This document shows positions 5,148 through 55,101 of a stretch of 64,000 nt of DNA, one piece after another. Source of the stretch: a virus (taxonomy: Duplodnaviria; Heunggongvirae; Uroviricota; Caudoviricetes). A program made the translations under genes and the position numbers. The first letter of the stretch is position 1. Each line of letters starts with the position of its first letter. The notes under the pieces were generated by a model, which saw nothing but the letters and a program-made list of their open reading frames with translations, did no database searches and was not told where the DNA came from. The stretch lies in the IMG/VR virus record IMGVR_UViG_3300046692_000385; one strand, written 5' to 3'.

Positions 5148-5173
5148 GTGTTGCTCCTTCGTCTTGTGAGTGT

Positions 5174-5189
5174 TAATCAGTTTTGACTG
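5174..5189. promoter_or_regulatory. motif TAATCAGTTTTGACTG
   Basis: Intergenic, 27 nt upstream of ATG 5147. Confidence 0.5.
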
Positions 5190-5249
5190 TGCTATTTTCA
5201 CAGCAAAATCATGGGGTTACAGCGGGAGAACGTGTGCCCTCCACTCTCC

Positions 5250-5669: not shown

Positions 5670-5884
5670 GGGTCAACCATGTCCGCGTGCAGCATGAACA
5701 TATCGATCAGGGGTTGGTCGACGTCGATCGCCCAGATCGGCGCTCTGGGATGGCCCATGTTTTCGACGCCGGTGATGCGCATGTCTTGCGACTGGCGAAT
5801 TGCTTCGGCGCTCGTGAGGTGCAGATCGGCGTAACCGCGGTCATTAAGGCGCACGCGCTGCCCGACTGTAGGCTTGGTGTTCAT
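5663..5884 (-). CDS. hypothetical protein (start MNTKPTVGQR)
   Basis: Internal ATG at 5884 with GAGG RBS. Confidence 0.4.
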   Translation of the reverse strand: MNTKPTVGQRVRLNDRGYADLHLTSAEAIRQSQDMRITGVENMGHPRAPIWAIDVDQPLIDMFMLHADMVDPC

Positions 5885-5891
5885 GTCGGCC

Positions 5892-8346: not shown

Positions 8347-9014
8347 GCTGCCTTCGTTTCGTCGTTGGCAGCCGGCGCCACGTCGATCACGTCGCCTTCG
8401 AGGACCGCGCGCTCCTTCGCCAGATCACGGTTTTCGTGCTGTGCGTCGTAGGCGCTGAACTTCTCCGGGAAGCGGGCGCGGAGCTTCGCGATGTTCTTCG
8501 CGCGAATGTCGTCCAGGTCAGCGCCGGCCGCATCGACGCCCACCGCCGTATACCACTGCATGTCGCCCAGTTCTTCGGCAAAGTTCACCGGATCGAACTT
8601 GCCCGTCTCCAGCGCGATCAAGAGCGCTTCGAGCGCCTCGCCCGACTCCGTGAAGAGGCCCACACCGGCGTGCAGCAGACGCGGGTTGAGGTTGCTCAGC
8701 TTCGCACGCAGGATGCCCACCGGCACTTGCGCGTCGCTTGGCAGCGAATCCGCGTCGAGCGGGTTGTCGAGCTGGCCCGCCTGGTTGTGGCTGAAGAGGA
8801 AGTTTGCGGTGCCGGCGATCTGCTGCAGCATGGCTGCGACTTCTTCCTGGTTCAGCGGCGTGCCGTAGTAAATCTTGCGCTTCGCACGGTCGAGCAGCTT
8901 GGACGTGACGACTGCGAGCGACAGGACCGCGTGCAGGCCGACGGTTCCAAAAGCGATGTGTGCCGGACGCGATTCGGTCGAGATGGCTTGGTCGACGTAT
9001 TCTTTCGAGTTCAT
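8343..9014 (-). CDS. mazG: MazG-like nucleotide pyrophosphohydrolase
   Basis: Start MNSKEYVDQ at 9014 with AAGGAGAAA RBS; ESGEALEALLIA...DMQWY...DAAGADLDDIRAKNIAKLRARFPE typical of MazG/NTP-PPase fold. Confidence 0.65.
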   Translation of the reverse strand: MNSKEYVDQAISTESRPAHIAFGTVGLHAVLSLAVVTSKLLDRAKRKIYYGTPLNQEEVAAMLQQIAGTANFLFSHNQAGQLDNPLDADSLPSDAQVPVGILRAKLSNLNPRLLHAGVGLFTESGEALEALLIALETGKFDPVNFAEELGDMQWYTAVGVDAAGADLDDIRAKNIAKLRARFPEKFSAYDAQHENRDLAKERAVLEGDVIDVAPAANDETKAA

Positions 9015-33427: not shown

Positions 33428-35410
33428 TTACCCGATCAAGAGCTGGCGCAGCTCCTTCATGACCCGGGCAGGCAGCTCAGTCACGTCGTTCAGGACCATG
33501 TGGCGGTTGTAGAACTTGGTCACTTCCATCGACTCGATGCCGATGCCGACGACGCGCACACCCGCCTTCTCGATGCCCTCGATCTGCTCCTTCAGGTGAT
33601 GGCGCAGCTCCGAACCGCCCTTGTAGCAGGCCGGTGCTCCGTCGGAGAGGACGATCATGATCTTGCCCGCTTCGCGCCGAGCCATCAGGCGTCGTGCGGC
33701 GATGGCGATCGACTCCCCGTCGACGTTGTTCGCCAGGTGCCCGGAGTGCGGCAACCAGCCGAAGCGGCTCTTGACTTCAGTGGACGTCATGCGCTCGTTG
33801 AACTGTTTCAAGATCGGCATGTAGAGGCTCTCAACCCGCGAGAAGTGACCCTTGCCCTTGAGCAGCGCCTCTTCCTTCTCGATGCGCTCCCAGATACCGG
33901 ACGGCAGCCCGCCAGTGGTGAAGCAGATCACCTCGCACTTGATATTGATCCGGTCCAGCACCGATGCGAGGGCATACGCGGCCTTCGCGGCGGTGTGGAT
34001 CTTCGAGCCGCCCATCGAGCCCGACATGTCGACGACCAGCTCCACCGCGACGTCTTTGGAGGTCGACTCGTGTTTCTTGCGGAATACGCGCGTGTCACCG
34101 ACCGCCAAGCGCGAGAGATTGCCCGAGTGCATGCGCCCCGAGCGCCGGCCGTTCTCCCACACCGAGAGCGAGCGGGCGGAAATCGCGCGCTCCAGGTCTT
34201 TCTGCAGCGGCGCGACCATGTGGTCGACCGCATCGGCCATGTTCTTGACCATGCTCGCGTTGAAGCCCGCACCGATCTTGAGCGGCTCCACGAGGTCGTC
34301 GTCCTTCGAGAAGACCAGGTAGTTCGACTTGCGAGCCGCCTCGACCGCTTCGTTGGTGATCAGGTTGCTCATGGCTTCGTCGAAGCCGTTGGCGATTTCC
34401 TTGTTGAGCGCTTCGAAGAAGCCCGACGAGCTGCCGTCGGTCGAGGATTCGTTGTCCTCGTCCTCGTCGCTCTCGTCCTCGTCGCCTTCGCCGGCAGCAG
34501 CGCCCTCCTCGCCCTCGTCCTTCTCGTCGTCGCTTTCGTCGCCCTCTTCGCCTTCGCCCTCGTCCTTCTCGTCGTCTTCGTCCTTCTCGCCCTTGCCCTT
34601 GCCCGAGCCGCCCTTCTCTTCCTCCTCGTCCTTCTCTTCTTCCTCGTCGCCTTCTTCGCTCGACGAGCCACCGCTCTTGCCGCCCTTCGGTTTCGCACCG
34701 TGCTTGGCAGGAGCGGGCTTCGCCTTCTTCGGCTTCGGGGCACCGGGACCAGCGCCACCGCTACCGCCCGGTGTGCCGAGTGCGTCGAGCACTTCCTTCG
34801 CGATGGCGATTGCGTCGGTGGTGCTCGCGCAGTGTTCGATTTGCTTTTGCAGGTGCGCGATCTTGGCAACCTCGTCGGCGACCGCGGCTTCCATGTCGGG
34901 GTGATTCGACATGAACTCCTTGAAAATCTGCTGTCCAGCGAGCGCGCGGATCGCCGGGACCATCACCGACGCCTTCACGCCGTTGACGTCGCCCTTCTTG
35001 GCGGCGGCCGCGACCGTCGGCTTCGTGTATTTGTCGAGGAAGAACTTGCCCGTCACCGAAATGTTGTGGCCCGAGCCGGTGAAGCGCTGCGCCATCGCCT
35101 TTTCGATCCGGGCGTCTTCGATCAGGTTGACCATGCTGTGGAGCGTCGGGTCGGTGATCTTGCCCATCGCCTTGAAGTCGGTGAACAGGATGTGCGCGAC
35201 TTCGTGGTCGAGAAAGCCCTGGATCGCGTCGCACAGTTCGTGGCTGGCGCTATCCGGGATGAACGGCAGGTTCACGCGCTTCGGCTCACCGTCGGCGCCC
35301 GATTCCACATAGGCTTGCACGCCTTGCTGCGTGACCAAGATGCCCTTACCGGCGAGCATTTGCGTGAGCTTCACGACCGCCTCACGCATTACTGCTACAC
35401 GTTCATTCAT
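33428..35410 (-). CDS. CobT-like vWA-domain protein with long acidic low-complexity insert
   Basis: MIDAS VVDMSGSMGGS; ~100-aa Gly/Glu/Asp/Lys-rich insert. Confidence 0.6.
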   Translation of the reverse strand: MNERVAVMREAVVKLTQMLAGKGILVTQQGVQAYVESGADGEPKRVNLPFIPDSASHELCDAIQGFLDHEVAHILFTDFKAMGKITDPTLHSMVNLIEDARIEKAMAQRFTGSGHNISVTGKFFLDKYTKPTVAAAAKKGDVNGVKASVMVPAIRALAGQQIFKEFMSNHPDMEAAVADEVAKIAHLQKQIEHCASTTDAIAIAKEVLDALGTPGGSGGAGPGAPKPKKAKPAPAKHGAKPKGGKSGGSSSEEGDEEEEKDEEEEKGGSGKGKGEKDEDDEKDEGEGEEGDESDDEKDEGEEGAAAGEGDEDESDEDEDNESSTDGSSSGFFEALNKEIANGFDEAMSNLITNEAVEAARKSNYLVFSKDDDLVEPLKIGAGFNASMVKNMADAVDHMVAPLQKDLERAISARSLSVWENGRRSGRMHSGNLSRLAVGDTRVFRKKHESTSKDVAVELVVDMSGSMGGSKIHTAAKAAYALASVLDRINIKCEVICFTTGGLPSGIWERIEKEEALLKGKGHFSRVESLYMPILKQFNERMTSTEVKSRFGWLPHSGHLANNVDGESIAIAARRLMARREAGKIMIVLSDGAPACYKGGSELRHHLKEQIEGIEKAGVRVVGIGIESMEVTKFYNRHMVLNDVTELPARVMKELRQLLIG

Positions 35411-35486: not shown

Positions 35487-35502
35487 CAGTCATTATTGAC
35501 TA
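35487..35502. promoter_or_regulatory. motif CAGTCATTATTGACTA abutting TTGCAC-N17-TAGAAT
   Basis: Candidate sigma-70-like promoter for CobT-like gene. Confidence 0.5.
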
Positions 35503-35559
35503 CCTGCACAGGCAAACAAAAAGCGGCCGAAGCCGCTTTCCGATGCTACGGGCGAGGGA

Positions 35560-35787
35560 CTAGCAGAGGCTGATGAGCGCGGTGGCCCCTGAGTCAGTGC
35601 TGATCAACAACATCAGGCCGAGCGTGGGGTGCAGGACCTTGTTGATCATTGCCGAGCCGAGGTCCATGCGACTGACCTGCGCGCCTTGCTCCATATAGTC
35701 CACGTATTGATCCTGCTCGATCATGCTGCCCAGTTGTGCCATCGAAATTCCCTCTTGCTGCGCGACCGCGCTTTGACCCGTCAACAT
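35560..35787 (-). CDS. hypothetical small protein
   Basis: 75-aa ORF, lower-GC island. Confidence 0.3.
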   Translation of the reverse strand: MLTGQSAVAQQEGISMAQLGSMIEQDQYVDYMEQGAQVSRMDLGSAMINKVLHPTLGLMLLISTDSGATALISLC

Positions 35788-35839
35788 CGTATTGAACTCC
35801 CGAAAGTTTTATTCAGTTTGATTCGCTGCTGAAACATTA

Positions 35840-35855
35840 TAGTCAGTGCTGACTA
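35840..35855. promoter_or_regulatory. perfect-arm motif TAGTCAGTGCTGACTA in divergent regulatory region
   Basis: First of a cluster of AGTCAG / CTGACT half-sites (35840-36065) ending with TGACTAGCTATAAT before HTH gene 36073. Confidence 0.5.
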
Positions 35856-36072
35856 TTTTTCACACAATTTATCGTCTTTTCTTAGCCACGCGGGATTGCG
35901 CGGTCGGTAAAAATGTATAGAATCCAAGACATAGGGAGTGTTCGTCAGTGCTGACACACGGGTATAGACGAGCGCCGTCCCACCAAGTCAGTCAATGATT
36001 ACTATCTGACTAGCTATAATCGATTCGAACAGAGTTACCGGGGCCGTCCCGCAGTCAGATAAGGAGAAAAAC

Positions 36073-36495
36073 ATGACCACGAAGAAGCAGCACAAAGAAG
36101 CCATGAGCGTCGCCGAATACTTCGACGCCCAGGTCAACCTACGCCAGATGACGCTCGCTCAGTTGAGCAAGGACATTGGGGGCGTGCTCAAGCCAAACAT
36201 GTTGTCGATGATTCGAGCGGGCCACACAAAGGTGCCGCTGATTCACGTAGGCCGCATTGCCCGAGCGCTCGGCATCGACCCGATGTTTCTGATGAAGATG
36301 GCGCTGCAGGAATACCAACCGGACAACTGGAAGGCGATTCAGGAAGTGTTCGGCGACCAGCCGGTGCTGACCCGCAATGAGATTGCCCTCATCAACGCGA
36401 TCCGCGAAGCCAACCCGAACAATCCGCGACTCAACGACGCGGACGCCGAAAAGTTCGCGAAGGTGGTGGCAACGTTGCATGGCGATAACGAGTGA
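36073..36495 (+). CDS. XRE-family HTH transcriptional regulator
   Basis: MTLAQLSKDIGGVLKPNMLSMIRAGHTKVP HTH; upstream 230 bp packed with motif half-sites; AAGGAGAAAAAC RBS. Confidence 0.6.
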   Translation: MTTKKQHKEAMSVAEYFDAQVNLRQMTLAQLSKDIGGVLKPNMLSMIRAGHTKVPLIHVGRIARALGIDPMFLMKMALQEYQPDNWKAIQEVFGDQPVLTRNEIALINAIREANPNNPRLNDADAEKFAKVVATLHGDNE

Positions 36496-36529
36496 AGTCG
36501 ATTTCATAGCGGCACGAGCAGCAAACTGG

Positions 36530-36554
36530 AAGCACCCTTCGGGGTGCTTTTTTT
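36530..36554 (+). terminator. rho-independent terminator
   Basis: GCACCC-uucg-GGGUGC followed by UUUUUUU. Confidence 0.6.
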
Positions 36555-36722
36555 ACGCCTGAACATTCAGGGGTTGGGCTCGGGACTGTATATCCATACA
36601 GTGTCGAGCCAGTGAGGAGATTGTAGGATCAAAGACAACGAAAGACAACCACTAGTTGCCATTTTGTTAGTGAATGTTTCAGAGCCTGTGACGAAAATCA
36701 CACAGCCCCAATCTGGCAGAAT

Positions 36723-37400
36723 TTACCTGATCGCCGCCGAATCCTTTAAGCTACGGCGGTCCGACCGTGTAATAACGCCCACAACACGGATCGGTTGGCC
36801 GAACGTGTCCTTGAAAACCTCGAATACTCCCTCTAGGTTTACCCCTATGTCACGCTTGTGTTCACCCTCGAAAAATACACGTGTCAATCCTTCTTGAAGC
36901 ATGCGATTGTAAAGTGCATCAACCACGGGTTTATTCTTTTCTGACAATAGGGCGCGGAAGTTTTCATGCGTTGCTTCCATACCAGGGGGTGCACAGAGGT
37001 GCTCACGTGCTAACGGACTCCAGTGGCAAACACCCGTTAGCAGGTTTTCCTCGATCACCCCGGCGTCTAATAGATTGATGGCAATGTGGAGGCGTCGTTC
37101 GCTGGCGATACAAGCTTCTAAGTAGGCTCGCCTCTTCTGAGCAAAGGCGTCATCAGGCTCTGGCTGCACTGAACGTAGTGCCTCATCCCCGTAACCTAAC
37201 CAGACCCAATTGACGTCCAAGTATTTGGAGACATCTCTCAAGCTCTTGTAATTTATTGCCCCACCCTTCAACCACTTTCCGACAGCTTGCGGAGATACTC
37301 CAATCGCTCTGGACAAAGATGCGGCAGTCTCTTGCTTGGCTTCTAGAAGCGAGCGTAGTCGTTCTGGGAAAGTGGCCTCTTTCTCAGTGGCGTTGGTCAC
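36723..37400 (-). CDS. HTH (XRE/cI-like) regulator with uncharacterised C-terminal domain
   Basis: N-terminal LRSLLEAKQETAASLSRAIGVSPQAVGKWLKGG. Confidence 0.5.
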   Translation of the reverse strand: MTNATEKEATFPERLRSLLEAKQETAASLSRAIGVSPQAVGKWLKGGAINYKSLRDVSKYLDVNWVWLGYGDEALRSVQPEPDDAFAQKRRAYLEACIASERRLHIAINLLDAGVIEENLLTGVCHWSPLAREHLCAPPGMEATHENFRALLSEKNKPVVDALYNRMLQEGLTRVFFEGEHKRDIGVNLEGVFEVFKDTFGQPIRVVGVITRSDRRSLKDSAAIR

Positions 37401-37658
37401 AGCTTCATCCTTTATTGTTCTCTCAACACGTTTGGCTTCACTACTATAGGGATAGTGATATTACTGTAACTAAATACACTTAAAAGCACTTTGGTATAAC
37501 GTGCTTTTTGTTTTTTGTCTGATAGATTCTACCCTCAGTTGGTGCACTGGAAGATCGCACGCTCCCGAGGTTGCCCTCTATATAACAATTCCCATATCTC
37601 GTTAAATCCCGAGCATTATAGAAAGCCAACTATTAGCGCACCCACCTTGCTTGCTACG

Positions 37659-37698
37659 TTGGTATTTTGGTATCTAGATACCTTGGTATCTTGGTATG
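37659..37698. repeat. candidate partition (centromere-like) site: TTGGTAT heptads around 14-bp palindrome GGTATCTAGATACC
   Basis: Four TTGGTAT copies within 40 bp plus a fifth near 37487, ~100 bp upstream of parA in AT-rich spacer. Confidence 0.4.
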
Positions 37699-37787
37699 AA
37701 GCAAGATGGCACACTTGAGAAGTTACTTGAAGACGAGCCATGTATGAATTAGGCTATGGACAAAACTTGTGATGGAGAGGGCAATCT

Positions 37788-38441
37788 ATGTCCGTTGTTA
37801 TGGTGGGAACTGAGAAGGGAGGTGTGGGCAAATCTACCTTTACACAGAACTTGGCTTCTATCCGCGCATCGCTCAAACGGCGAGTCGCCGTGTTCGACCT
37901 GGACGGGCAGAACAGCACGGCGAAGTGGGCTTCGCGTCGGGCCGATAATCCCGCCCTGGCGCCGGTCCACGTCGAGCGGTGGGAGCCGCGAACGCCGATC
38001 ACGAAGGAAGAGTTTGGCGCCGTCATCGCGCGCCTGATTGACACCTACGACGACGTTTTTATCGATGTCGGTGGGCGTGATTCGGACGGCTTTCAATGGG
38101 GCTTAGGCGTCGCTGACCGGGTGATTGCACCGCTCGTGCCGTCGCAGATGGACCTAGACACTGTGCCCGATCTTCACGCTCTCGTTGGCACCTATGCGAA
38201 GAAAATTAACCTGAGTGTGGTGCTCAATATGGCCGACAAACGCAAGCGATTCACGAAGGCGATGGTGCAGAAAATGGAGCCCTACGCCGATCGTCTCCCG
38301 CTCATGAGTCACATGGTCGCGCCGCGAGAAAGCTACAAATTCGCCAACGCTCAGGGCAGGGGAGTGGGCGAGCTTTCGGGTTCCGAGTGGGATGCCAGTG
38401 CGGCCAACGAAATGAAAGACCTATATTTGGGAACGTTCTAA
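37788..38441 (+). CDS. parA: ParA-family partition ATPase
   Basis: Deviant Walker A KGGVGKST; GGAGAGGG RBS. Confidence 0.8.
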   Translation: MSVVMVGTEKGGVGKSTFTQNLASIRASLKRRVAVFDLDGQNSTAKWASRRADNPALAPVHVERWEPRTPITKEEFGAVIARLIDTYDDVFIDVGGRDSDGFQWGLGVADRVIAPLVPSQMDLDTVPDLHALVGTYAKKINLSVVLNMADKRKRFTKAMVQKMEPYADRLPLMSHMVAPRESYKFANAQGRGVGELSGSEWDASAANEMKDLYLGTF

Positions 38442-38443
38442 TC

Positions 38444-38821
38444 ATGAGCAAAGCCAACGTGATGTCGGAGCCAAAGAGTAAGCAGTATTTGGCGGACCTG
38501 GAGGCGGTCGACACCTCGCGCTCGGCGCCTGCACCTGCTAACCCGCCCGAGAGGATTGAGGACGAGGAGGTGGTAGCACCGGCGGTAGTGACAGAGGGGA
38601 GGGCGCTTGCTCGCCCGGGGAGGGGCGTGGACTTACAAGCCCTGCGCGCCGCGCTGCCGAAGAAGGAAGCTCCGGTGCAGCAGCCGGTTCGTATTCCGCC
38701 GTCGTTGAAGGAGGACCTGACGCTGATCTGTTTCGCGCTTGGTAAGACCAAGAACGACTTCATCGTGGACATACTGCGAAAGGAAGTCGCGCGTGAGAAG
38801 AAGCGCATGGGCCTGGACTGA
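38444..38821 (+). CDS. ParG-like ribbon-helix-helix partner protein
   Basis: Start MSKANVM right after parA stop; C-terminal RHH RIPPSLKEDLTLICFALGKTKNDFIVDILRKE. Confidence 0.5.
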   Translation: MSKANVMSEPKSKQYLADLEAVDTSRSAPAPANPPERIEDEEVVAPAVVTEGRALARPGRGVDLQALRAALPKKEAPVQQPVRIPPSLKEDLTLICFALGKTKNDFIVDILRKEVAREKKRMGLD

Positions 38822-38844
38822 CCACCCTCCTGCAGACTGCTTTT

Positions 38845-39125
38845 CGGGTTTTGAGATAGGGGTCTATTGGGAGGTTTTCCGGGTTGGATCGGGTTTTGAG
38901 ATAGGGGTCAGGGTAGTTAGAAGATAGTTATAAAGGATTAGGGCCTGTGGAAAGGACTTGTAAGTCACTGAAAACATAAGCCTTTTTTTGCATGCCTTCT
39001 ATCTCAAACCCCGACAATTCCTATCTCAAACCCCGTTAGCGGCTATCTCAAAACCCGAGTTTCTATCCCAAACCCCGAACGAAAAATATCTCAAAACCCG
39101 ATAGTTATGCACATCTCAATCCGAG
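38845..39125. repeat. iteron-type replication origin: 2 inverted + 6 direct copies of TATCTCAAA(A/C)CCCG at ~22-bp spacing
   Basis: Direct copies at 39000, 39022, 39044, 39064, 39087, 39112 (last degenerate); inverted copies at 38845 and 38890; flanked by 16-bp inverted repeat GCCTTTTTTTGCATGCC (38980) / GGCATGCAAAAAAA (39145). Confidence 0.75.
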
Positions 39126-39147
39126 CCCTGCGTGCTACTTTCTCGGC

Positions 39148-39969
39148 ATGCAAAAAAACACCGCCATCGACATCCTGAAACGCCGAGAAGCCACGCAGCG
39201 AAAGGCATCGACGGCGCCCGTCCAACTGGAGTTCTGGTCCGAGAAGGTTCGTGGTCTGCCTAACACGCTCGCGCGCTGCGCGCTATTTACCGCGGCCGGC
39301 AAGAAAGAGGATCGGGCCAAATTCAGCGAGCATGTCGTTTTCTCGACCAAGGGTTTCACACTGACCTACACCGGCGAGGAACTACGTCAGGATGACCAGG
39401 ACGTTTTCCTGCAGCTCGTCCACATGACGCGCGGCATTCCCATCGGCCACAAGCTGAACGTCACGGGCTACACCATTCTGGGGGCGCTCAGTTGGGGCAA
39501 GGGCGGCAAAGACTACGCGCGCCTTCGCGAGAGCATTGAGCGGCTCTCCGACACCAGGATAAAGCTCGAAGGCGAGAACATACGCTTCAAGGGCGGATTG
39601 CTGCCCTCGATGACCCAAGTCGGTGACTCGGCTGCGAGTCGGTTTCGACTGTGGCTGGACCCGAGCGTGATCGAACTCTTTGGCGAGAACGAGTATTCAC
39701 TGGTCGACTGGGAGGATCGGCTCTCGCTGTCGGCCCTGGCGAAGTGGCTCCACAGCTTCTACTTCACGCACCGAGAGCCGCACCCATATCGAATCAAAAC
39801 CATTCACGAGCTTTGTGGCAGCCGGCAGAAGGAGCTCTGGGCCTTTAAGCAGAAGCTCAAGTTGGCGCTCGATGAACTGGTGCTGATTGGCTTTCTCGCC
39901 AAATACGAAATCCTGGGCGATCTGCTGGCCGTGCGCCGGCAGTATGCGGTTGCGGCACTTCGCAACTAA
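39148..39969 (+). CDS. TrfA-like plasmid replication initiator
   Basis: LPNTLARCALFTAAG segment typical of TrfA family; immediately downstream of iterons. Confidence 0.55.
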   Translation: MQKNTAIDILKRREATQRKASTAPVQLEFWSEKVRGLPNTLARCALFTAAGKKEDRAKFSEHVVFSTKGFTLTYTGEELRQDDQDVFLQLVHMTRGIPIGHKLNVTGYTILGALSWGKGGKDYARLRESIERLSDTRIKLEGENIRFKGGLLPSMTQVGDSAASRFRLWLDPSVIELFGENEYSLVDWEDRLSLSALAKWLHSFYFTHREPHPYRIKTIHELCGSRQKELWAFKQKLKLALDELVLIGFLAKYEILGDLLAVRRQYAVAALRN

Positions 39970-40348
39970 CCGTCCAGCGCCCGACCCTACTTATGCACAG
40001 AAACGGTGGACAACCCTGTGGAGCAATGATCGATGCTGGTCGACGTCTCCCCGATGCGTGAGCGCGGCAAGGCACTGCCTCAACACGCCGTGCAGAGCGG
40101 CCCGGCGGTCCACGGCGATCTTGTGATCGGCCAGGAGAAATCCTCCGCACTCAACCGCTACACCAACATCGCACGCTTCCAGACGGCAGGCGCCACCGAT
40201 CCGCAGCCACTTCCGTCGCTTCACGACGCCGCGCTTTCCTGGATGGGTCCGCTTGGGTTCGTCCTGACGGGCGTGGAATTCGTCGACGGCACTGCTTACT
40301 CACAGTCTTGGTGGTGCCGTCCGAGCTAGACGGAGGCCCGACGGGATC

Positions 40349-40813
40349 TTGCGCGGACCACCGGAGATTGCAATGGATCTACTGAACCTACTCGAAGGCG
40401 TCGCGGCAGTCTTAGCCATTTACATCTCAGTTGGGAAACTCCAAAGAGGGCTCTTAAAAAACTGGCTCACTGCCTGGCGCATCATGGCTAGCGTTGGGGT
40501 CGTCGCCGTCTGTGGGTGGATGCTGGTTTTCCAGGTGACCGGCAATATCGACGAAATAATTCACTATCCGCGCGCGGGCCTGTTTCGCAGCCTATCCGTC
40601 GCCGCGCTAGTGATCTGGGCAGCGGTCGTGACGGTCTGGGGCACCTGGAAGCCCTACCACGTCAAGACGATGAACATTCAGGAGAGGCGCTGGCACTTCG
40701 GAATCATGTTCTTGGTGTGCGTTCTCATCGTAGTGGCCGCGAAGATTCCACGCTGCTCAGGCAGTGCCTTATACGATTCTGCATGGGGAGTCTGGTGGTG
40801 CCAGCAGGGCTAG
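40349..40813 (+). CDS. membrane protein
   Basis: 154 aa, 4 predicted TM helices. Confidence 0.4.
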   Translation: MRGPPEIAMDLLNLLEGVAAVLAIYISVGKLQRGLLKNWLTAWRIMASVGVVAVCGWMLVFQVTGNIDEIIHYPRAGLFRSLSVAALVIWAAVVTVWGTWKPYHVKTMNIQERRWHFGIMFLVCVLIVVAAKIPRCSGSALYDSAWGVWWCQQG

Positions 40814-41463
40814 GCCTTGCCGCTGCGGCCCCAGCCGAGCGCTGCTGGGCGGCTGTAGTTGGCGAACTTCACCTTGAGCCAGTCTCTTGAGCGCCCGCGC
40901 TGATACGGCGAGTCGAGTCGCTTGCCGACCATACCCTCGAAATCGTGCTCCTTGACCTGCTCGAAGACCCATGCGCCGGCCGCCACGATGCCGGTTACGT
41001 AGACCAACACGGCCGTATTGTCGAAGGAGTCGCGCAGCGCCTGCTTGCGCTCGACAAGCGGCAGGTGCCGAATGTCGCGATCGCCATCGGCGAGCATGTC
41101 AAACACGTAGAGGCGGGCCGGGTGCAGCCTCATCGCGGCCCGCACGTTCGCTGCGACCGAGGTCCGCGCCCGAATTTGCAGGCGCTCGAATGAGGACTGC
41201 CCAGTCGGCTCATCCACAGTGAGCTCCGCGTCCCAGATGAAATCGCCGGGCACCTGCGCGACCGCCGCGAGCACGTCAGGAAACGAGCGGTTCATGAGGT
41301 TGCCCTGCCGCGAAATTAGCTCGACGCGCGCGCCAACCTTCCGAACCAGACAGCGATGGCCGTCGTATTTAAGTTCGAACAACCAGTCTTCGCGGGAAAA
41401 CGGTGCGCGGTTGAGCGTGGCGAGCATCAGGTCGCTGGCGTCGATGAGCGGAATGCCACTCAC
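40810..41463 (-). CDS. ATP-dependent DNA ligase nucleotidyltransferase domain only (no OB domain)
   Basis: Motif I KYDGHR, III FIWDAEL, IV LYVFDML, V EGMVGK; 217 aa. Confidence 0.6.
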   Translation of the reverse strand: MSGIPLIDASDLMLATLNRAPFSREDWLFELKYDGHRCLVRKVGARVELISRQGNLMNRSFPDVLAAVAQVPGDFIWDAELTVDEPTGQSSFERLQIRARTSVAANVRAAMRLHPARLYVFDMLADGDRDIRHLPLVERKQALRDSFDNTAVLVYVTGIVAAGAWVFEQVKEHDFEGMVGKRLDSPYQRGRSRDWLKVKFANYSRPAALGWGRSGKA

Positions 41464-41642
41464 GGCTTTGGCAATCGGGCGCTGACATAGGCGAGCTTCG
41501 CCCAGGCGTTGTCAGGATCGCACCCGGAATAGGCGCAGAAATGCTCGAAGTCGTCGAACACGGTATGGCCCGCGTCGTTGGTTTGCAACGTGCGGCCATC
41601 AATGACTTTCTTCAGCAATTCGACTGGATCGCCATAGCACAT
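41460..41642 (-). CDS. hypothetical small protein
   Basis: 60 aa, coupled to ligase-domain gene. Confidence 0.3.
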   Translation of the reverse strand: MCYGDPVELLKKVIDGRTLQTNDAGHTVFDDFEHFCAYSGCDPDNAWAKLAYVSARLPKP

Positions 41643-41744
41643 AATGACCCCTCCGGTTGACGCGAACGGCCAAGCAAACCCGGTGCCCGCGCATCAAAAT
41701 GATCCGCCCCAAAACGTTGCTAATGAAACGCCCGAGGATGAACT

Positions 41745-41969
41745 ATGAAAACTTGGACCTACGAGGAAGTCACGGCGGAAGCCGAGCGCCAAATTAAACG
41801 CGGGGTGGAGGATGCGGAAACGGCCGACCTTCAGTCAACAAAGAACATGAATGCAGATTTCGCTTTCGGCGCATATTTATTCTGGCTGGGACTGACAGCC
41901 GAGGTCGCGACGATTGAAGATCAACGGCGCTTAGAGGCGTTAGCTAAGAGTTCCGAGAAAAGACGATAA
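41745..41969 (+). CDS. hypothetical small protein
   Basis: 74 aa. Confidence 0.3.
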   Translation: MKTWTYEEVTAEAERQIKRGVEDAETADLQSTKNMNADFAFGAYLFWLGLTAEVATIEDQRRLEALAKSSEKRR

Positions 41970-42050
41970 TCAGTATTATGTCAACCACGGTGCGCGGTGA
42001 CGCGCCCTGGCTGCTCGCGCTATGATGAAAGCCTCACAGTGAGGTGTCTC

Positions 42051-42245
42051 ATGGGAAATATGTGGACTGAGCCTGCCGTCAGCGGGCACGACACGAAGGA
42101 AGAAGCCGAAGCCTACGACAAGTGGTTCCGCGAAGAGGTGCGGCTCGCTCTCGAAGAGGATGCGCCGAGCATTCCGCACGACGAGGCTGTTGCAATGTTG
42201 CGCGCCCGGGCCGCGGAGCGAAGGAAGGCGCAGAATGATCGTTGA
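42051..42245 (+). CDS. type II antitoxin (ParD/RelB-like)
   Basis: Start MGNMWTEP with GTGAGG RBS; 11-nt overlap with toxin gene. Confidence 0.5.
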   Translation: MGNMWTEPAVSGHDTKEEAEAYDKWFREEVRLALEEDAPSIPHDEAVAMLRARAAERRKAQNDR

Positions 42246-42507
42246 CTGGCGCCCGCGCGCCTTGCGCCGCCTTTACCAGATCCACGAACACATCAGCCAA
42301 GACAGCATCGACGCCGCAGATTTCGTGCAGGAGACGATTATTTCGGCGGCGGCCGATCTGCCCGCCCATCTCTACGTCTACCGCGAAGGTCGTGTGCCAA
42401 ACACGCGGGAGATGGTCGTGCTGCCGAACTACATCATCGTCTATCGGATCAAGAAGGATCGAATCGACATCGTGAACGTCCTGCACTCGCGGCGACGCTA
42501 CCCATGA
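42235..42507 (+). CDS. RelE/ParE-family toxin
   Basis: MIVDWRPRAL...IIVYRIKKDRIDIVNVLHSRRRYP ParE/RelE fold signature. Confidence 0.65.
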   Translation: MIVDWRPRALRRLYQIHEHISQDSIDAADFVQETIISAAADLPAHLYVYREGRVPNTREMVVLPNYIIVYRIKKDRIDIVNVLHSRRRYP

Positions 42508-42698
42508 CCGACGAAGAATGGCAACAGGCTTTGGCGAAGCTTGATCAGATCGATGGCAAGCTTGAAGAGATCGCTGGCGAATTTGAGGCGATGCAGCGCG
42601 ACTGGCGTCAGAGACTTACCAAGATCGACGCCACTCTGACACGCATCGAAGTTAGTTCGAGAGCCACATCAGGCGCTCGACCTCGACGTCCAGCTTGA
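42504..42698 (+). CDS. hypothetical coiled-coil small protein
   Basis: 64 aa. Confidence 0.3.
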   Translation: MTDEEWQQALAKLDQIDGKLEEIAGEFEAMQRDWRQRLTKIDATLTRIEVSSRATSGARPRRPA

Positions 42699-43284
42699 TC
42701 ACTGTGCGGTAGGCGCGGCGCAGCTCGGGCCACTCCATATCGAACACGTCCGCGAGCTCCAGCGATAGACCGAAAAGCGGTGCGACCGTGCCGTTGAGCT
42801 CCTGCCAGAAGACATACGGGGTTCGCAGGTGGCGCGGGGTGAGCCGCAGCACGTCGAGCGCCAGTTTCGAGAGCGTGCCATTTGTGCGAAGCGTCTGGGC
42901 CCGGTCCCACTTGAGGGTGATCAGGTCGTCGATCTCCAGGTTCGCCTCGAGGCCGAACAGCACCGCTGCCGGCCGGGGCCGGGCAAGCTGCTCTAAACCG
43001 GTTCGAATGTCGCCAAGCGTGATGCGCTCTTGCGGAATCGCGAAGCGCATGAGCGGCACTTCTGGCACCTCGCCCCGTGCGTGTGCTGCGCGCACCTGTG
43101 CAAGCACCGTCTCAACGATCAGCTTCCCCTCTTCACCGCGGTTGTCCATATTCAGACGCGTGAGAAAGGCGTGAAGCTGCATCGGGTGCGCTCGTTCGAG
43201 CGCCGTTTCCCAGATGGGGGAATCTGTAAGGGCTGATTTGCCCAGGAGAGGCGTGATCTCTCCGACGTCTTTGAGCGCCTGCAT
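42652..43284 (-). CDS. hypothetical protein
   Basis: 210-aa ORF. Confidence 0.45.
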   Translation of the reverse strand: MQALKDVGEITPLLGKSALTDSPIWETALERAHPMQLHAFLTRLNMDNRGEEGKLIVETVLAQVRAAHARGEVPEVPLMRFAIPQERITLGDIRTGLEQLARPRPAAVLFGLEANLEIDDLITLKWDRAQTLRTNGTLSKLALDVLRLTPRHLRTPYVFWQELNGTVAPLFGLSLELADVFDMEWPELRRAYRTVIKLDVEVERLMWLSN

Positions 43285-44508: not shown

Positions 44509-44919
44509 TCACCAGGTTTTGATTTCTTCGAGCTTCAGTTCGATTTCGGGCGACGCCTCGATCGTGCGCAGCGCGAGCAGGCGCATGTCGTTCAAATGCG
44601 CGCGCACCGCTGCCAATTCCGCTTTGTGCGATTCGGTCGCTTCACCGCTCGATGGACGGAATCCCTGCTTGTAGAGCGCGTCGAAAAGCGCTTGCGCGGC
44701 TTTATGCGTGAGCGTGAACATCGGCTCCGGCGGCATCGCCTGACCGGTCGGCACGTTCTCGACTTCAAACGAGCCGAACGGCTTGATGACGCCCACGCCG
44801 GTCGTGCCTCGATACGACAGGCCGTGAACGTCAAGACCGCCCACGCCCATGTTCTCGCGCATCATCACCTCCTCCAGCCACAGAGTCGGGACCGCCTTTG
44901 GGGTGGACGACGTGCTCAT
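44509..44919 (-). CDS. hypothetical protein
   Basis: 136 aa. Confidence 0.45.
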   Translation of the reverse strand: MSTSSTPKAVPTLWLEEVMMRENMGVGGLDVHGLSYRGTTGVGVIKPFGSFEVENVPTGQAMPPEPMFTLTHKAAQALFDALYKQGFRPSSGEATESHKAELAAVRAHLNDMRLLALRTIEASPEIELKLEEIKTW

Positions 44920-46313
44920 GCTGCGAGCGCCTCCACCTTCTTGCCGGTGACAGCATTCGCGCGAGCGGCGATCACTTCTTCCAGCGAGTCGGCCGTCTCC
45001 TTGTCCGTGCGATAGCTGGCTTCAGCCATGCGCGGCAGGAACAGGCTATGCAGCGGGTTGCTGTCGGAGGGCTTCATGATTTCGTTGAAGCGAATCGGCC
45101 ACACGTGACCGATGAAAGCTTCGCGGTCGGCGTCGATGGCGTCACGCAGCGCTTCGTTCTTCACCGCCACATTGACCTGCAGCAGACCGTCGCGGGTTTC
45201 CATCGTGACGCGCCCTGCCCGCCCTTCGTTCTTCGTGCCCGGTTCGCCGTCGAGGATGGCGGTCGAGACGAGATCCACATCGATTTCCAGCTTGAGCTTG
45301 ACCACATCGGCGTTGCCGCTCGACGTGTCTTTCCAGACGCCGGCGCCGTTCTTGAGCACCGTGCCTTCCTTGCCTTCGATCTGCAGGCTCGCGCAGTGTG
45401 CATAGGCTTCGTCGAGCGAGTGGACGATCTTCGTCGGGATCAGGCGCACCGAAGCGCCGCCCGAGCGCATGATTTGCGTGAGCAGGCCTCTGAAGCGCTC
45501 GCGATACGGCGTGTCGCAACTGCCCTTTGGCAGCGCCAGTTCGAGCGGGATCTGATCCCAGGCGAAGAAAACAGGCTTCTCGTTCGGAGCGAAGCTGCCG
45601 CCCGCCAGCACGCTGTTCAGAATGCCGTTGCCGAGTTCACGCGAGGCGACCACGCCGTCGACCAGCACCACGATCTCGCCGTGCGTCTGCGTGCCAGGTG
45701 AAAAGGTTTTGCGCGCTTCGTGTTCGATGGCGGGGAACGCCTCGATCGGCAGTTCGTTGCCCTGGCGCGTGGTCAGGCGCACGACGCCGGCCGTATCGTG
45801 GTCAACGTTCGTGAATGCGCCGTCTGCCTTGTGCTGGCTGAACGCGCCCGCCTTCCAGTCCCACTTGTCGAACTTCGCCTTCTCCGGCAGCACGCAGCGC
45901 ATGTAGGGGAAGCTGCGGATCGTGCCCTTCTTCGCCTTGTTGACGGTTTCGGCCGAGAAGCCCGCGCGCAGGTCTTTCTTGATGATGCGCCAGAAGAGTT
46001 CCGACGAGGCGGGCTCAAGGCGCTCCATCTCCGCGCGCACTGCGTCGATTGCCGCGTTGCCGGTGAGGTCACGCGCGGCGAGGCGCTTGATGATCGCGTA
46101 GGTGTCTGCGTCGAACATCGCACCACCAACCTTCGCCGCGTCATTTTCCGGGCGTTTGCTGATGCCGTAGCTGATCAGCGGGTCGAGCGCGAACAGCAGC
46201 ACGTCCCGAAAGTCGACATCCTCGATGTTCGCGGCGACGAGCGCCTGCTTTTCGTTCTTGCTGCTGGTCGAGGCGATCGTATCGATCAGCAGGAAAATCT
46301 CTTTCGAATTCAT
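44916..46313 (-). CDS. ATP-dependent DNA ligase (full length)
   Basis: Motif I region QHKADGAF, adenylation + OB domains, N-terminal DNA-binding domain. Confidence 0.7.
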   Translation of the reverse strand: MNSKEIFLLIDTIASTSSKNEKQALVAANIEDVDFRDVLLFALDPLISYGISKRPENDAAKVGGAMFDADTYAIIKRLAARDLTGNAAIDAVRAEMERLEPASSELFWRIIKKDLRAGFSAETVNKAKKGTIRSFPYMRCVLPEKAKFDKWDWKAGAFSQHKADGAFTNVDHDTAGVVRLTTRQGNELPIEAFPAIEHEARKTFSPGTQTHGEIVVLVDGVVASRELGNGILNSVLAGGSFAPNEKPVFFAWDQIPLELALPKGSCDTPYRERFRGLLTQIMRSGGASVRLIPTKIVHSLDEAYAHCASLQIEGKEGTVLKNGAGVWKDTSSGNADVVKLKLEIDVDLVSTAILDGEPGTKNEGRAGRVTMETRDGLLQVNVAVKNEALRDAIDADREAFIGHVWPIRFNEIMKPSDSNPLHSLFLPRMAEASYRTDKETADSLEEVIAARANAVTGKKVEALAA

Positions 46314-53337: not shown

Positions 53338-55101
53338 TCAGTTGGAGCGGGTTCGAGCGGGTGCGAAAAGGTGACGGCTGCGGCTTCCCGGCTGCGCGCT
53401 CTGCTCGCGGGCTTGTGCGGTGAGGCTGCGCGTGCGGGTCGGAGTGAGGCTGCGCACGCGCGACGGCACGAACTTGGCCGGCACCACCTGCGTCTGAGCC
53501 GTGAGGGTGAGCGCCGCGTCGAGCCGGGTTTCGATGGCGAGCTCCGCCGACAGATCCAGGGGCTCGATGTCGCCCATCCAGGCCGCGAGGGTCGAGTTAG
53601 TCTGAAGGTCAGCGGCGAGCGGCACATCCATGCGCAGCGCCGCGGCAAGTGTTGCGGCCGGCAGCAGCTCCGCGGCGAGATCGATCGGCGTCAGCACCTG
53701 GCCGAGCGTCGCGTCGGCGTCGAGGGTCGTGCCCGCGTGCAGGTCGGCTGCGATTGCCTTGTGGATCGTCAGGTCGGCCGTGAGCGAACTGGAGGCCTCG
53801 AGATCCACGCTGATCGCGCGTGCACTGCCCACCGCCGCAATCAGGCTCGACTGCGTGTGGAGGCTCGCTTCGAGGGAGGTCGAAAGGCCCGCGGCCGCGG
53901 TGAGCTGAGATCCACCCGTGAGTGCGGCCTCGAGCTGCACGCCACGCGTGGCGCCGGAGATGAGGCTCGATCCGGCGATAAGCGTCGCGGCAAGCGGCCG
54001 GTCGATCGTGACCGCGCCGGCGAGGCTTGCGCCGGCCGTGAGGCTGGTTGCGAGTGAGGTTGAGAGTGCGGCGGTCGCCGCGAGGCCCGAACCGCTGGCA
54101 AGACTTGCCGCGAGCGGGACGGCTTTGCTTGCGTTCGCTGCGAGCGACGATGTGCCCTGCAAGCTCGCATTGAGCCCGGTAGCGAGTCCAGCCGTGCCCG
54201 TGAGTGTCGATGCGCTCGCAAGCGCTGCGGCAAGCCCTGTCGCGAGACTGACGGTGCCCGAGAGGGTCGATGCCGTCGTGAGTGCGGCAGATACGGCGAT
54301 ACCGGTCGACACCGGCGTGTAGGTGATGCGGATCTGGCCGCCCGCAGCCGTGCCGCCCGTGCTCGAACCCCAACCACCGCCGCCCGAACCACCGCCCGGA
54401 AAGCCGCCGTTGCCGCCGTTGTTGCCGTTCGACGTCGAGCCGGTGTTACCACCGCCACCACCGCCACCGCCGCCACCGCCGTTTGCGTTCGAGCCGCCGG
54501 CGCCGCCGTTACCGGTGCCGGTCGCAGCGCCTGCTGTGCCCTTTGCTCCGCCCAGGCTGTTGTCACCTGCGCCACCTGCACCGCCCGCGCTGGTTGTGGG
54601 TGCGACGCCTACCGCGCCGACGCCATCCGGGCCTGGCGCGCCACCACCGCCACCACCACCGCCGTTCGTCGCGTTGCGCCCGTTGCCGCCGGCAGTGCCC
54701 GCGCGCTTGACCTGGCCGTTAGCGCCGGTCGTGGTTGCGCCGAGACCGCCCGTCGACGAGCCGCTGATCGGTGCCTTACCGCCGTTTGCTGACACGACGC
54801 CCGATGCGACGGAGGTGCCATCGAACCAGGTGCCGGTGCCGTCGAAACCAAAGCCGTTGCCGGTCGACGATGCCGGCCCACCCACGCCCAAGCCAATCGG
54901 GACTTGGCGACCAGGCGTATAGCCGGTGAGATTGGCGCTGCTCGAATAGCCACCCGAGCCACCGCCTGGTGAGCCGTTGGGTGCGTCGGCGTTACCGCTC
55001 GCGCCTGCGCCATGTGTTTCGACGGAATCAAGGGTGCCGGAGCAGTTCGCCGGCACTTCCCATACATCACCTGCTGTGAGGATGACGACTACTTGCGCCA
55101 T
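53338..55101 (-). CDS. Gly-rich fibre-like structural protein
   Basis: 587 aa; long GGxGG tracts then repetitive Ala/Leu/Thr beta-like repeats. Confidence 0.55.
   Translation of the reverse strand: MAQVVVILTAGDVWEVPANCSGTLDSVETHGAGASGNADAPNGSPGGGSGGYSSSANLTGYTPGRQVPIGLGVGGPASSTGNGFGFDGTGTWFDGTSVASGVVSANGGKAPISGSSTGGLGATTTGANGQVKRAGTAGGNGRNATNGGGGGGGGAPGPDGVGAVGVAPTTSAGGAGGAGDNSLGGAKGTAGAATGTGNGGAGGSNANGGGGGGGGGGGNTGSTSNGNNGGNGGFPGGGSGGGGWGSSTGGTAAGGQIRITYTPVSTGIAVSAALTTASTLSGTVSLATGLAAALASASTLTGTAGLATGLNASLQGTSSLAANASKAVPLAASLASGSGLAATAALSTSLATSLTAGASLAGAVTIDRPLAATLIAGSSLISGATRGVQLEAALTGGSQLTAAAGLSTSLEASLHTQSSLIAAVGSARAISVDLEASSSLTADLTIHKAIAADLHAGTTLDADATLGQVLTPIDLAAELLPAATLAAALRMDVPLAADLQTNSTLAAWMGDIEPLDLSAELAIETRLDAALTLTAQTQVVPAKFVPSRVRSLTPTRTRSLTAQAREQSAQPGSRSRHLFAPARTRSN

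Follow-up and report, generated by a model that had tools for sequence, protein, structure and literature searches.

The DNA analyzed here, a 64,000-nucleotide (nt) stretch of the IMG/VR virus record IMGVR_UViG_3300046692_000385 (the window), very probably belongs to a phage-plasmid, that is, a temperate phage kept as a plasmid by an immunity switch and a low-copy-number replicon and carrying variable cargo. The window most likely covers about 60% of a siphovirus-like temperate phage of about 110 to 115 kb with a host in the Burkholderiaceae. Its plasmid-type genes lie in an island, or slot, at 35.5 to 42.7 kb. As judged by comparison with related loci, this island is a composite of an immunity region, a swappable ParA-ParG-origin-TrfA cassette, and variable cargo. 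An earlier reading made without database searches (the sequence-only reading) had recognized replication and partition genes of the low-copy-plasmid type within a phage genome, and that observation was borne out by synteny with circular Acinetobacter “AB” phage-plasmids and a circular Cupriavidus plasmid. Replication, partition, and an episomal state are what we infer for the window element itself.

The center of the island contains an open reading frame (ORF) predicted to encode a TrfA-family replication initiator of 273 amino acids (aa) (39148 to 39969, plus strand; Pfam TrfA PF07042, E = 1.6e-28, 100 bits, profile positions 31 to 279 of 282). Iterons directly upstream of a TrfA-like initiator had been reported in the sequence-only reading, and seven copies of TATCTCAAAMCCCG, five direct and two inverted, were found within 38845 to 39100. 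Only 0.45 copies of this word would be expected in the whole 64 kb, and seven copies were reached in 0 of 100 shuffles. The two inverted iterons (38845 to 38858 and 38890 to 38903, minus strand) are followed by an AT-rich spacer of 87 bp (38910 to 38996; GC content, 0.39) that contains the motif GATTAGGGCCTGTGGAAA and is a candidate DNA-unwinding region. The five direct iterons (TATCTCAAAMCCCG(A); 39000 to 39100, plus strand) come next, with start-to-start distances of 22, 22, 20, and 23 bp, and a DnaA-box-like sequence, TTATGCACA (39105 to 39113, plus strand), stands directly after the last of them. A degenerate iteron, CATCTCAATCCGAG, follows this box just before trfA, and a second copy of TTATGCACA is located 22 nt past the trfA stop codon (39991 to 39999, plus strand). 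The region thus has the features of a TrfA-family iteron replicon, namely, a TrfA-domain initiator and a direct iteron array beside an AT-rich region.

Relatives used for comparison were loci from IMG/VR, JGI, and GTDB; the GTDB scan, made with CobS, returned at least one locus and may miss closer genomes. Among fetched loci that included DnaE, close relatives had DnaE identities of 81 to 86%, and these included IMGVR_UViG_3300047323_000428 (L002; 111,080 bp; DnaE, 86%) and IMGVR_UViG_3300046500_000231 (L010; 113,003 bp; DnaE, 86%). The window TrfA was 71% identical to that of L002, 49% identical to that of a Burkholderia gladioli contig, and 41% identical to that of a Cupriavidus plasmid. The same origin plan (inverted iterons, AT-rich spacer, direct iterons, DnaA-box-like site, and trfA) was shared by all four elements; in each of the three relatives, the inverted iterons are positioned as in the window. 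The iteron sequence was particular to each element: TATCTCAAAMCCCGA in the window (five direct and two inverted), GTTCCTCAAAACCCGATA in L002 (five and two, with spacings of 22, 23, 20, and 24 bp), GTCGCTCAAACCCCG in B. gladioli, and CATCGSTAGAAGCACGA in Cupriavidus (11 direct and four inverted). After the last iteron, an identical TTATGCACA was present in B. gladioli and TTGTCCACA was present in L002. A spacer motif, GATTAGRG.CTGT.GGAA...TAAGTCAYTGAAA, was common to the window, Cupriavidus (L015:26757-26850), and B. gladioli (L024, parG-trfA intergenic region), and it was kept although the TrfAs of these three elements are 38 to 49% identical and their iterons differ. This motif may be a site for a host factor; the window spacer motif GATTAGGGCCTGTGGAAA likewise recurs in the Cupriavidus and B. 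gladioli origins.

TrfA homologues were absent from 50,697 deposited phage genomes and were found on 638 PLSDB plasmids, with a best identity of 45% (Burkholderia glumae); a scan of metagenome contigs returned relatives at ≤50% identity only. In a TrfA tree (rough neighbor joining, no bootstrap), the window and L002 grouped with TrfAs from another phage backbone (L004 type) and then with B. gladioli, and the TrfAs of the Cupriavidus phage-plasmid and of a further one, L027, were placed elsewhere among other TrfAs. On the basis of this tree, the replicon does not strictly track the backbone, which fits repeated exchange among plasmids and phage-plasmids. ParA and TrfA cassettes (TrfA, 45 to 59% identical) also occurred on other contigs called viral in IMG/VR (L003 to L007; 46 to 89 kb), beside tail fiber genes. 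One of these, L004 (89 kb; TrfA, 57% identical), has a different phage backbone, with RecT, an exonuclease, a single-stranded DNA-binding protein (SSB), and baseplate wedge proteins. TrfA-type phage-plasmids may occur in more than one phage lineage. A plasmid-like 90-kb contig of Burkholderia cenocepacia has the same order of a helix-turn-helix (HTH) gene, ParA, one further gene, and TrfA.

Upstream of the origin, a small Walker-type ParA of 217 aa (37788 to 38441, plus strand; Pfam MipZ, 5e-13; CbiA, 3e-12; AAA_31) carries the KGGVGKST motif cited in the sequence-only reading at residues 10 to 17. The Pfam match begins at residue 2 or 3, and the protein is a small deviant-Walker ParA without an N-terminal HTH, as in type Ib partition systems. 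It was ≤34% identical to any PLSDB protein, ≤31% identical to any protein in the phage collection, and 64 to 71% identical to proteins of relatives with the same backbone; these values make ParA look lineage specific rather than recently imported. An ORF that starts 3 nt after parA encodes a protein of 125 aa (38444 to 38821, plus strand) that is described here as ParG-like on the basis of an AlphaFold2 (AF2) model, Foldseek comparison, and homologues. Pfam gave no match to this protein, and a profile search of the PDB gave a best E value of about 1, to the ribbon-helix-helix (RHH) antitoxin EndoAI. In the model, the N-terminal 75 residues are disordered, residues 78 to 85 are extended, and helices span residues 86 to 99 and 103 to 122 (predicted local distance difference test [pLDDT] scores, 82 to 88). 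Nearly all of the top Foldseek matches were RHH proteins (CopA-SO, AmrZ, TacA, Arc, and CopG), at nonsignificant E values of ≥0.66. Eight database homologues were found in all, and four of the eight carried PF10723, which we take to be a member of the RHH clan. Of the RHH ParG-like partner proposed earlier, the small gene, the disordered N terminus, and the C-terminal strand-helix-helix were recovered, and the RHH matches stayed at the E values given above; ParG-like is a reasonable descriptive label for the modeled protein and makes no claim of membership in the ParG family.

The parA leader (37401 to 37787) is AT rich (GC content, 0.41) and carries four TTGGTATN repeats at 37659 to 37698, including the palindrome GGTATCTAGATACC. 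By their clustering in this leader, the repeats are a candidate centromere and par operator. At the equivalent place, L002 has GGTATCAAGATACC and the Cupriavidus plasmid has a long array of CATATGAT repeats. Across the whole window, words resembling TTGGTATC were not above chance (18 versus 20 expected), and only the local cluster is notable.

The island differs from its surroundings in composition and orientation, as had been noted from the sequence. Its GC content was 0.561 (35500 to 42700), versus 0.610 (1 to 35400) and 0.629 (43300 to 64000), and that of 37401 to 37787 was 0.408. Most of the reduction came from four long intergenic regions (0.41 to 0.49) and one of the two HTH regulator genes, HTH2 (0.516); parA (0.581) and trfA (0.588) were barely lowered. 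The plus strand prevails among island genes, and nearly all other genes of the window are on the minus strand.

The phage replication, lysis, and tail genes listed in the sequence-only reading were likewise identified outside the island. Those with replication and recombination functions include a DnaE-type polymerase, a DnaG-type primase, DnaB, an ATP-dependent ligase, RecA, and a gp32-like SSB, and those for nucleotide metabolism include the large and small subunits of ribonucleotide reductase (RNR), Thy1, and guanylate kinase. An SbcC-like ATPase (PHROG 77), metallophosphoesterases, a sigma-70-like factor, a CobS/CobT-like pair, Hfq, and PhoH were also present, as were genes for a cell wall hydrolase and a tail fiber (Pfam/PHROG). 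Every backbone gene in the window is a long, uninterrupted ORF whose coding signal is strong. The genes for capsid, portal, and terminase fall beyond the 64 kb; the syntenic Cupriavidus plasmid has them. Where the window is richest in GC, it includes an ORF of 587 aa (53338 to 55101, minus strand; GC content, 0.68 to 0.71 at 53 to 55 kb) for which Pfam and PHROG gave no match.

Backbone genes are ordered DnaB, primase, ligase, guanylate kinase, the slot, CobT, CobS, sigma, DnaE, gp32, RecA, SbcCD, RNR, and Thy1, which is the order found in the Acinetobacter baumannii plasmid NZ_CP027608.1 (DnaE, 58%) and the Cupriavidus metallidurans plasmid NZ_CP083720.1 (DnaE, 51%). On the left, the slot is flanked by a gene for a CobT-like VWA protein (33428 to 35410, minus strand; PHROG 1576, 3e-204, and CobT families), which adjoins it in all relatives. 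On the right, comparison with relatives identified the first backbone gene as a 210-aa ORF of no known family (42652 to 43284, minus strand), the product of which was 60 to 68% identical in L002, L009, and L010 and 27% identical in an Acinetobacter phage-plasmid. The top plasmid matches to DnaE were A. baumannii plasmids of 105 to 115 kb (58%); identities were 42 to 45% to RHEph10-type Rhizobium phages, Stenotrophomonas phages, and Pseudomonas phage nickie and 37 to 38% to SSU5. More than 1,000 PLSDB plasmids had 65 to 72% nucleotide identity across DnaE-CobS. They were mostly nonmobilizable, those listed were about 100 to 135 kb, and their hosts were Klebsiella, Escherichia, Acinetobacter, Yersinia, and Salmonella.

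Pfeifer et al. (2021) described the AB phage-plasmid group, with RHEph10, pLM21S1, and Nickie as distant relatives and a link to the SSU5 supercommunity (PMC7969092). The window element falls within this AB/SSU5-related lineage by its shared syntenic backbone; the placement makes no use of the weighted gene repertoire relatedness (wGRR) of Pfeifer et al. and implies no assignment to AB-g1 or AB-g2. As its DnaE is just 58% identical, the element is placed outside the AB group, which is confined to Acinetobacter. By these gene-order and identity comparisons, the lineage is broad, taking in the Acinetobacter AB phage-plasmids, Rhizobium phage RHEph10 and pLM21S1, and Pseudomonas phage nickie, with SSU5 more distant.

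Two relatives in cultured strains are stand-alone replicons. In DNA sequence, the nearest plasmid was NZ_CP083720.1 of C. metallidurans ZM02, a complete, circular record of 107,329 bp from a pure culture; it encodes tail, tape measure, major capsid, portal, and large terminase proteins as well as two ParB-like proteins. No integrase was annotated in the approximately 87 kb of the record that was covered. Its slot, from the CobT-like gene to ligase, contains an HTH gene, ParA (annotated as MipZ), a small protein, a 670-bp repeat region, and trfA. In B. gladioli GCA_048654765.1, a separate contig of 111,078 bp (JBMDMM010000028.1; L024), found in four assemblies, has the order DnaE, CobS, CobT, small gene, HTH1, HTH2, ParA, small protein, TrfA (49%), cargo, ligase, primase, and DnaB. 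This contig ends inside dnaE, as would be expected of a circle opened at an arbitrary point. Its cargo near TrfA includes H-NS-like, PAAR-motif, and Arc-like proteins. Among the metagenomic relatives, a JGI contig of 111,519 bp (L027) carries ParA, one further gene, and TrfA (41%) beside the same backbone genes, and the TrfA of the window itself was recorded on a JGI contig of 115,577 bp. An exact-protein look-up gave an identical Logan contig of 10.6 kb (L001; run SRR26076607), and metagenome contigs searched for an exact 40-nt stretch had no match. Relatives of 107 to 113 kb retain full structural modules, and IMG/VR classed several relatives of near-complete length as viral.

Comparison of the slot among sister phages showed that its contents are exchanged. 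L002 has ParA (71%), a ParG-like protein (55%), iterons, and TrfA (71%) with no cargo, on a backbone that is 70 to 87% identical. L010 and a variant present on 22 JGI contigs (L017 to L022; one of 108,838 bp) keep ParA-ParG, and a Rep_3 initiator (WH1 and WH2; Rep3_N, 1.7e-34, and Rep3_C) with unrelated TGGGAGGATTTTC repeats replaces TrfA and its iterons (L010:4473-5700). The slot of L009 (5985 to 7966) contains an HTH_17-type excisionase-like (Xis) gene, a tyrosine integrase (Int) of 450 aa, and a 117-bp segment that includes the 3′ 53 nt of tRNA-Cys. L016 (DnaE, 81%) is a 449,862-bp contig of a Paraburkholderia metagenome-assembled genome in which the phage is integrated at tRNA-Cys (3627 to 5898), in the order uvrC, pgsA, tRNA-Gly, tRNA-Gly, tRNA-Cys/Int, Xis, HTH2, HTH1, CobT, CobS, and DnaE; its junction matches the L009 attP segment at 97% identity. 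In both L009 and L016, Xis-Int-attP is located exactly where the window has ParA-ParG-origin-TrfA, and the ParA-ParG-origin-Rep cassette is missing. Because these sisters carry Xis-Int-attP instead, the cassette appears to accompany lysogeny of the plasmid type, and lytic growth can probably proceed without it. A more distant relative, L012 (DnaE, 68%), has in its slot (8012 to 8632) a truncated integrase with arm-binding and central domains only and no catalytic domain, which may be a decayed lysogeny module. Across these genomes, the comparisons indicate that the slot is a cassette exchange site for TrfA, Rep_3, or Xis-Int-attP(tRNA-Cys) modules.

Integration was found in the sisters and not in the window. 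An integrase had been assigned in the sequence-only reading to the left end of the window, and this was not upheld: neither the ORF at 424 to 1542 nor any other ORF of ≥150 aa in the first 12 kb had a recombinase match in Pfam or PHROG. The ORF at 424 to 1542 (minus strand) encodes repeated segments resembling APTPE(C/R)A(P/D)REAQP and several Cys pairs and matched no Pfam or PHROG family. When the Xis of L016 and four integrases (from L009, L012, L014, and L016) were used as tblastn queries, nothing in the 64-kb window matched, and no attP-like tRNA-Cys fragment was present in it either. The proposal that the element can either integrate or be episomal is accordingly not supported by the 64 kb; integration is a property of those sisters in which Int-Xis-attP replaces the cassette.

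The part of the island nearest CobT is shared by plasmid-type and integrative relatives. It begins with a small conserved gene (35560 to 35787, minus strand), the first of a leftward operon into CobT-CobS-sigma-DnaE, which was 43 to 70% identical in L002, L008, L009, and L010 and to which a Pfam scan assigned no family. Between this gene and that for HTH1 are two operator-like palindromes about 100 bp apart, ATAGTCAGTGCTGACTAT (35839 to 35856), which overlaps a leftward sigma-70-like promoter (35863 to 35836), and GTCAGTGCTGAC (35944 to 35955). They form a pair of the pattern (ATA)GTCA-N4-TGAC(TAT). GTCA-N4-TGAC pairs were present at the equivalent place in L002, L008, L009, L010, and L016, with the arms kept and the central 4 nt varying, as expected for putative operators of an immunity switch. 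HTH1 is an XRE/Cro-type regulator of 140 aa (36073 to 36495, plus strand; Pfam HTH_3, 7e-5) with homologues in every relative examined, integrative ones included, and at 30 to 36% identity in Acinetobacter and Cupriavidus phage-plasmids.

HTH2 (36723 to 37400, minus strand; Pfam HTH_3, 7e-6) is a cI-like regulator in which AF2 and Foldseek analyses placed a C-terminal PAS-fold domain after an XRE HTH. The N-terminal domain resembles 434 Cro and P22 c2 (Foldseek); the C-terminal domain (pLDDT, 73 to 85) matched the FixL PAS domain at 6.5e-6 and many LOV/PAS structures at a probability of 1.00. No LexA/S24-type peptidase domain was detected in HTH2 by Pfam or Foldseek. Together with the PAS fold, this result suggests signal-gated induction (of the ligand, redox, or light type). 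HTH2 homologues are few (five clusters) and occur in plasmid-type and integrative relatives alike. The small gene, HTH1, and HTH2 are kept in close relatives whatever lies beyond them, except that HTH2 is missing from the common Rep_3 variant and from the Cupriavidus plasmid. The two HTH regulators of the sequence-only reading were therefore present, both with HTH_3 matches, but not as plasmid genes; since they and the operators are kept in integrative relatives too, they are better regarded as a phage immunity region. The XRE-PAS architecture of HTH2 is possibly the most interesting lead in the region.

To judge from its distribution among relatives, the cargo at 40.0 to 42.7 kb is the only part of the island that behaves as accessory DNA. 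The small membrane protein noted earlier is encoded at 40349 to 40813 (plus strand) and has four hydrophobic segments by hydrophobicity analysis; it had no Pfam or PADLOC match and was absent from L002 and L010. The next gene, which the sequence-only reading had not listed, encodes a short ATP-dependent DNA ligase of 217 aa with the adenylation domain only (40810 to 41463, minus strand; Pfam DNA_ligase_A_M, 8e-27), which is additional to the full-length phage ligase of the window (44916 to 46313). It had 65 to 73% nucleotide identity to genes on Burkholderia and Paraburkholderia plasmids. A 60-aa ORF lies downstream of it (41460 to 41642, minus strand), and the pair was also found in L010 and was absent from L002. 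The cargo ends with a toxin-antitoxin pair that had been described as ParD/ParE-like. The ParE toxin was confirmed over its full length (42235 to 42507, plus strand; Pfam ParE_toxin, 4e-13); the antitoxin, whose maximal ORF (41997 to 42245, plus strand) overlaps that of the toxin, matches PaaA2 (Pfam PF21217, 2e-7) and not the RHH protein ParD, and the pair is accordingly of the PaaA2-ParE type. It was present in L010 and L017 and absent from L002. PADLOC gave nothing relevant for antiphage defense genes in the cargo. At the DNA level, the island had no matches in the phage collection, and its matches in PLSDB were limited to patchy cargo matches of 65 to 75%, on Burkholderia, Paraburkholderia, and Caballeronia plasmids, and short TrfA/iteron fragments.

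Taken together, these features suggest how the element would be maintained. The HTH regulators would repress the leftward CobT-CobS-sigma-DnaE replication operon through the GTCA-N4-TGAC operators and so keep the phage quiescent. TrfA bound to the five direct iterons, with host DnaA at TTATGCACA, would open the 87-bp AT-rich spacer for low-copy theta replication, and, if the element works as iteron plasmids do, handcuffing, copy number limitation, and trfA autoregulation may be due to the inverted iterons together with the degenerate copy at the trfA promoter. Copies would be segregated in a type Ib manner by ParA and the putative RHH ParG-like protein acting on the TTGGTATN repeats, and the PaaA2/ParE addiction module would penalize loss of the element by killing cured cells. 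Lytic replication would rely on the phage's own set of DnaE, DnaB, and primase. The cassette is most likely specific to plasmid lysogeny, since integrative sisters have no initiator in the slot and the Rep_3 sister keeps the same replisome.

Several points weigh against reading the element as a phage-plasmid. Only 64 kb was seen, and the remainder could contain an integrase, or capsid or packaging genes that are defective. Origin function, ParG binding, toxin-antitoxin activity, and an extrachromosomal topology are predictions from sequence and relatives; the centromere was assigned solely by position and clustering, and the RHH assignment of the ParG-like protein combines a medium-confidence model with nonsignificant fold matches. 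Statistics for the DnaA box were weak (4 copies of TTATGCACA window-wide versus 1.36 expected), and its function is better supported by its conserved position in the window, B. gladioli, and L002 than by this count. The related plasmid pLM21S1 was not inducible with mitomycin C (PMC5537653), so some members of the lineage may be defective. This last observation, the documented conversion of P1-like phage-plasmids into plain plasmids (PMC10879196), and the position of the capsid and terminase genes outside the window would all suit a defective phage-derived plasmid that is maintained by TrfA and ParA and has lost virion formation. The window backbone ORFs are, however, intact and long with a strong coding signal, and the relatives of 107 to 113 kb keep full structural modules, several of them having been called viral at near-complete length; a defective plasmid is thus considered unlikely.

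The sequence-only reading had also raised the capture of a plasmid backbone as a moron, in which case the ParA-TrfA-toxin-antitoxin block would be a recently acquired passenger in an integrative or virulent phage. The lower GC content of the island, the presence of TrfA on hundreds of plasmids and in none of the 50,697 deposited phage genomes, and the similarity of the short ligase and toxin-antitoxin genes to plasmid DNA (65 to 75%) are compatible with such an event. Yet several relatives that share the backbone have the cassette in this very slot, the cassette has diverged roughly in step with the backbone (ParA and TrfA, 71%, versus 70 to 87% in L002), and the origin architecture is conserved, which argues that the cassette is not a recent moron. 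ParA is too distant from any PLSDB protein for a recent plasmid import, the Cupriavidus and B. gladioli relatives are stand-alone replicons, and no integrase was found in the window, all of which leave recent capture highly improbable. Equally little probability is given to TrfA and the iterons being a general, lytic phage origin, comparable to lambda O/ori, rather than one specific to lysogeny. The cassette does lie within the replication gene region, between the DnaB-primase-ligase and CobST-DnaE blocks, and the Acinetobacter AB phage-plasmids have no annotated Rep in the slot. A lytic origin is nevertheless difficult to reconcile with integrative sisters that have neither TrfA nor Rep_3 in the slot, with a sister in which an unrelated Rep_3 and unrelated iterons accompany the same ParA-ParG and replisome genes, and with the linkage of the cassette to a partition system and a toxin-antitoxin pair, both of which are features of low-copy maintenance.

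As a phage-plasmid, the element resembles several known systems. The AB plasmid NZ_CP027608.1 (106,967 bp) has gene-for-gene backbone synteny with the window (DnaE, 58%; CobS, 53%; ligase, 47%), in the order DnaB, primase, further genes, ligase, one gene, guanylate kinase, two genes, the slot, a small gene, CobT-like, CobS-like, two genes, and DnaE. Genomes of this group are about 105 to 117 kb, and their slot, between the guanylate kinase side and CobT, has an HTH1 homologue and a small ParA. No Rep is annotated in the AB slot, where a site-specific recombinase of 196 aa accompanies an HTH gene, ParA, and a small protein; the slot of the window has ParA, ParG, iterons, and TrfA. The window also adds a second, PAS-containing regulator and the toxin-antitoxin pair, and its host clade is the Burkholderiaceae. 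The Cupriavidus plasmid and the B. gladioli contig share with the window the backbone, the order of HTH, ParA, small protein, iterons, and TrfA, and the origin plan, but they are distant in sequence (DnaE, 51%, and TrfA, 41%, in Cupriavidus; TrfA, 49%, in B. gladioli), differ in iteron sequence and number, and, in the case of Cupriavidus, are without HTH2. With SSU5, pHCM2, pKpn, and pMT1, the element has in common a DnaE-type polymerase, the CobS/CobT-like pair, a size of about 100 to 110 kb, a plasmid prophage lifestyle, and 65 to 72% DNA similarity across DnaE-CobS. SSU5-type elements have mostly IncFIB (RepA) replicons (PMC7969092) and the rhizobial relative pLM21S1 has a RepC-type replicon (PMC5537653); the window replicon is TrfA, and its DnaE is 37 to 38% identical to that of SSU5.

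The replicon itself resembles Burkholderiales TrfA/oriV replicons and RK2 in its TrfA domain, direct iterons about two helical turns apart, AT-rich region, and DnaA-box-like site. It differs in that the window TrfA is at most 45 to 49% identical to plasmid TrfAs and the replicon is embedded in a phage. The window iterons are immediately upstream of trfA, unlike in RK2, where oriV is remote from trfA. The only Pfam families on the scanned island proteins were HTH_3, ParA-type ATPase, TrfA, ligase, PaaA2, and ParE; the IncP proteins KorA, KorB, and IncC were not among them, no search was aimed at these proteins, and membership in IncP-1 is not claimed. The partition genes resemble TP228 ParF-ParG-parH and pB171 par2 in having a small Walker ParA without an N-terminal DNA-binding domain and repeats upstream of parA, and the partner resembles type Ib partners in its size (about 125 aa) and in its modeled flexible N terminus and C-terminal RHH-like fold. 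In sequence, the window proteins nonetheless show no recognizable similarity to either ParG or ParF; the match to an RHH fold is nonsignificant, and the centromere is a candidate. In closely related temperate phages of the cluster A mycobacteriophages, parABS replaces the integrase at the same locus; the cassette exchanged here differs in also bringing an initiator and an iteron origin (TrfA or Rep_3).

Phage-plasmids in which the phage part is conserved and the plasmid part varies are already known, as is this backbone lineage, and most of the described groups are from Enterobacteria, Acinetobacter, Vibrio, and Firmicutes. A search of the phage-plasmid literature with regard to TrfA and Cupriavidus found no published description of TrfA-type phage-plasmids or of these Burkholderiaceae elements. 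The window element, the Cupriavidus plasmid, the B. gladioli contig, and the metagenomic relatives indicate that the large DnaE/CobST-type phage-plasmid backbone also circulates in the Burkholderiaceae, where it uses replicon types of that clade's plasmids (TrfA, and Rep_3 in sisters), comparable to RepFIB in enterobacteria and RepC in rhizobia. The general pattern would be one backbone adopting whichever replicon suits the host clade. Because the mechanism is conventional, the value of the finding is taxonomic and comparative rather than conceptual. Phage-plasmids are recognized vehicles of gene flow between phages and plasmids, and the TrfA, Rep_3, and Int-Xis variants offer a ready comparison for the genes that set lifestyle and for a possible incompatibility of TrfA-type phage-plasmids with resident Burkholderia plasmids. 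It is conceivable, though on balance doubtful, that the lineage switches its mode of lysogeny by cassette exchange beside a shared XRE-PAS switch, with induction gated by the PAS domain and not by RecA-mediated cleavage. In that event, the plasmid and integrated prophages of this group, being closely related and governed by one signal-responsive switch, would allow what each lifestyle costs and gains to be compared in a natural setting.

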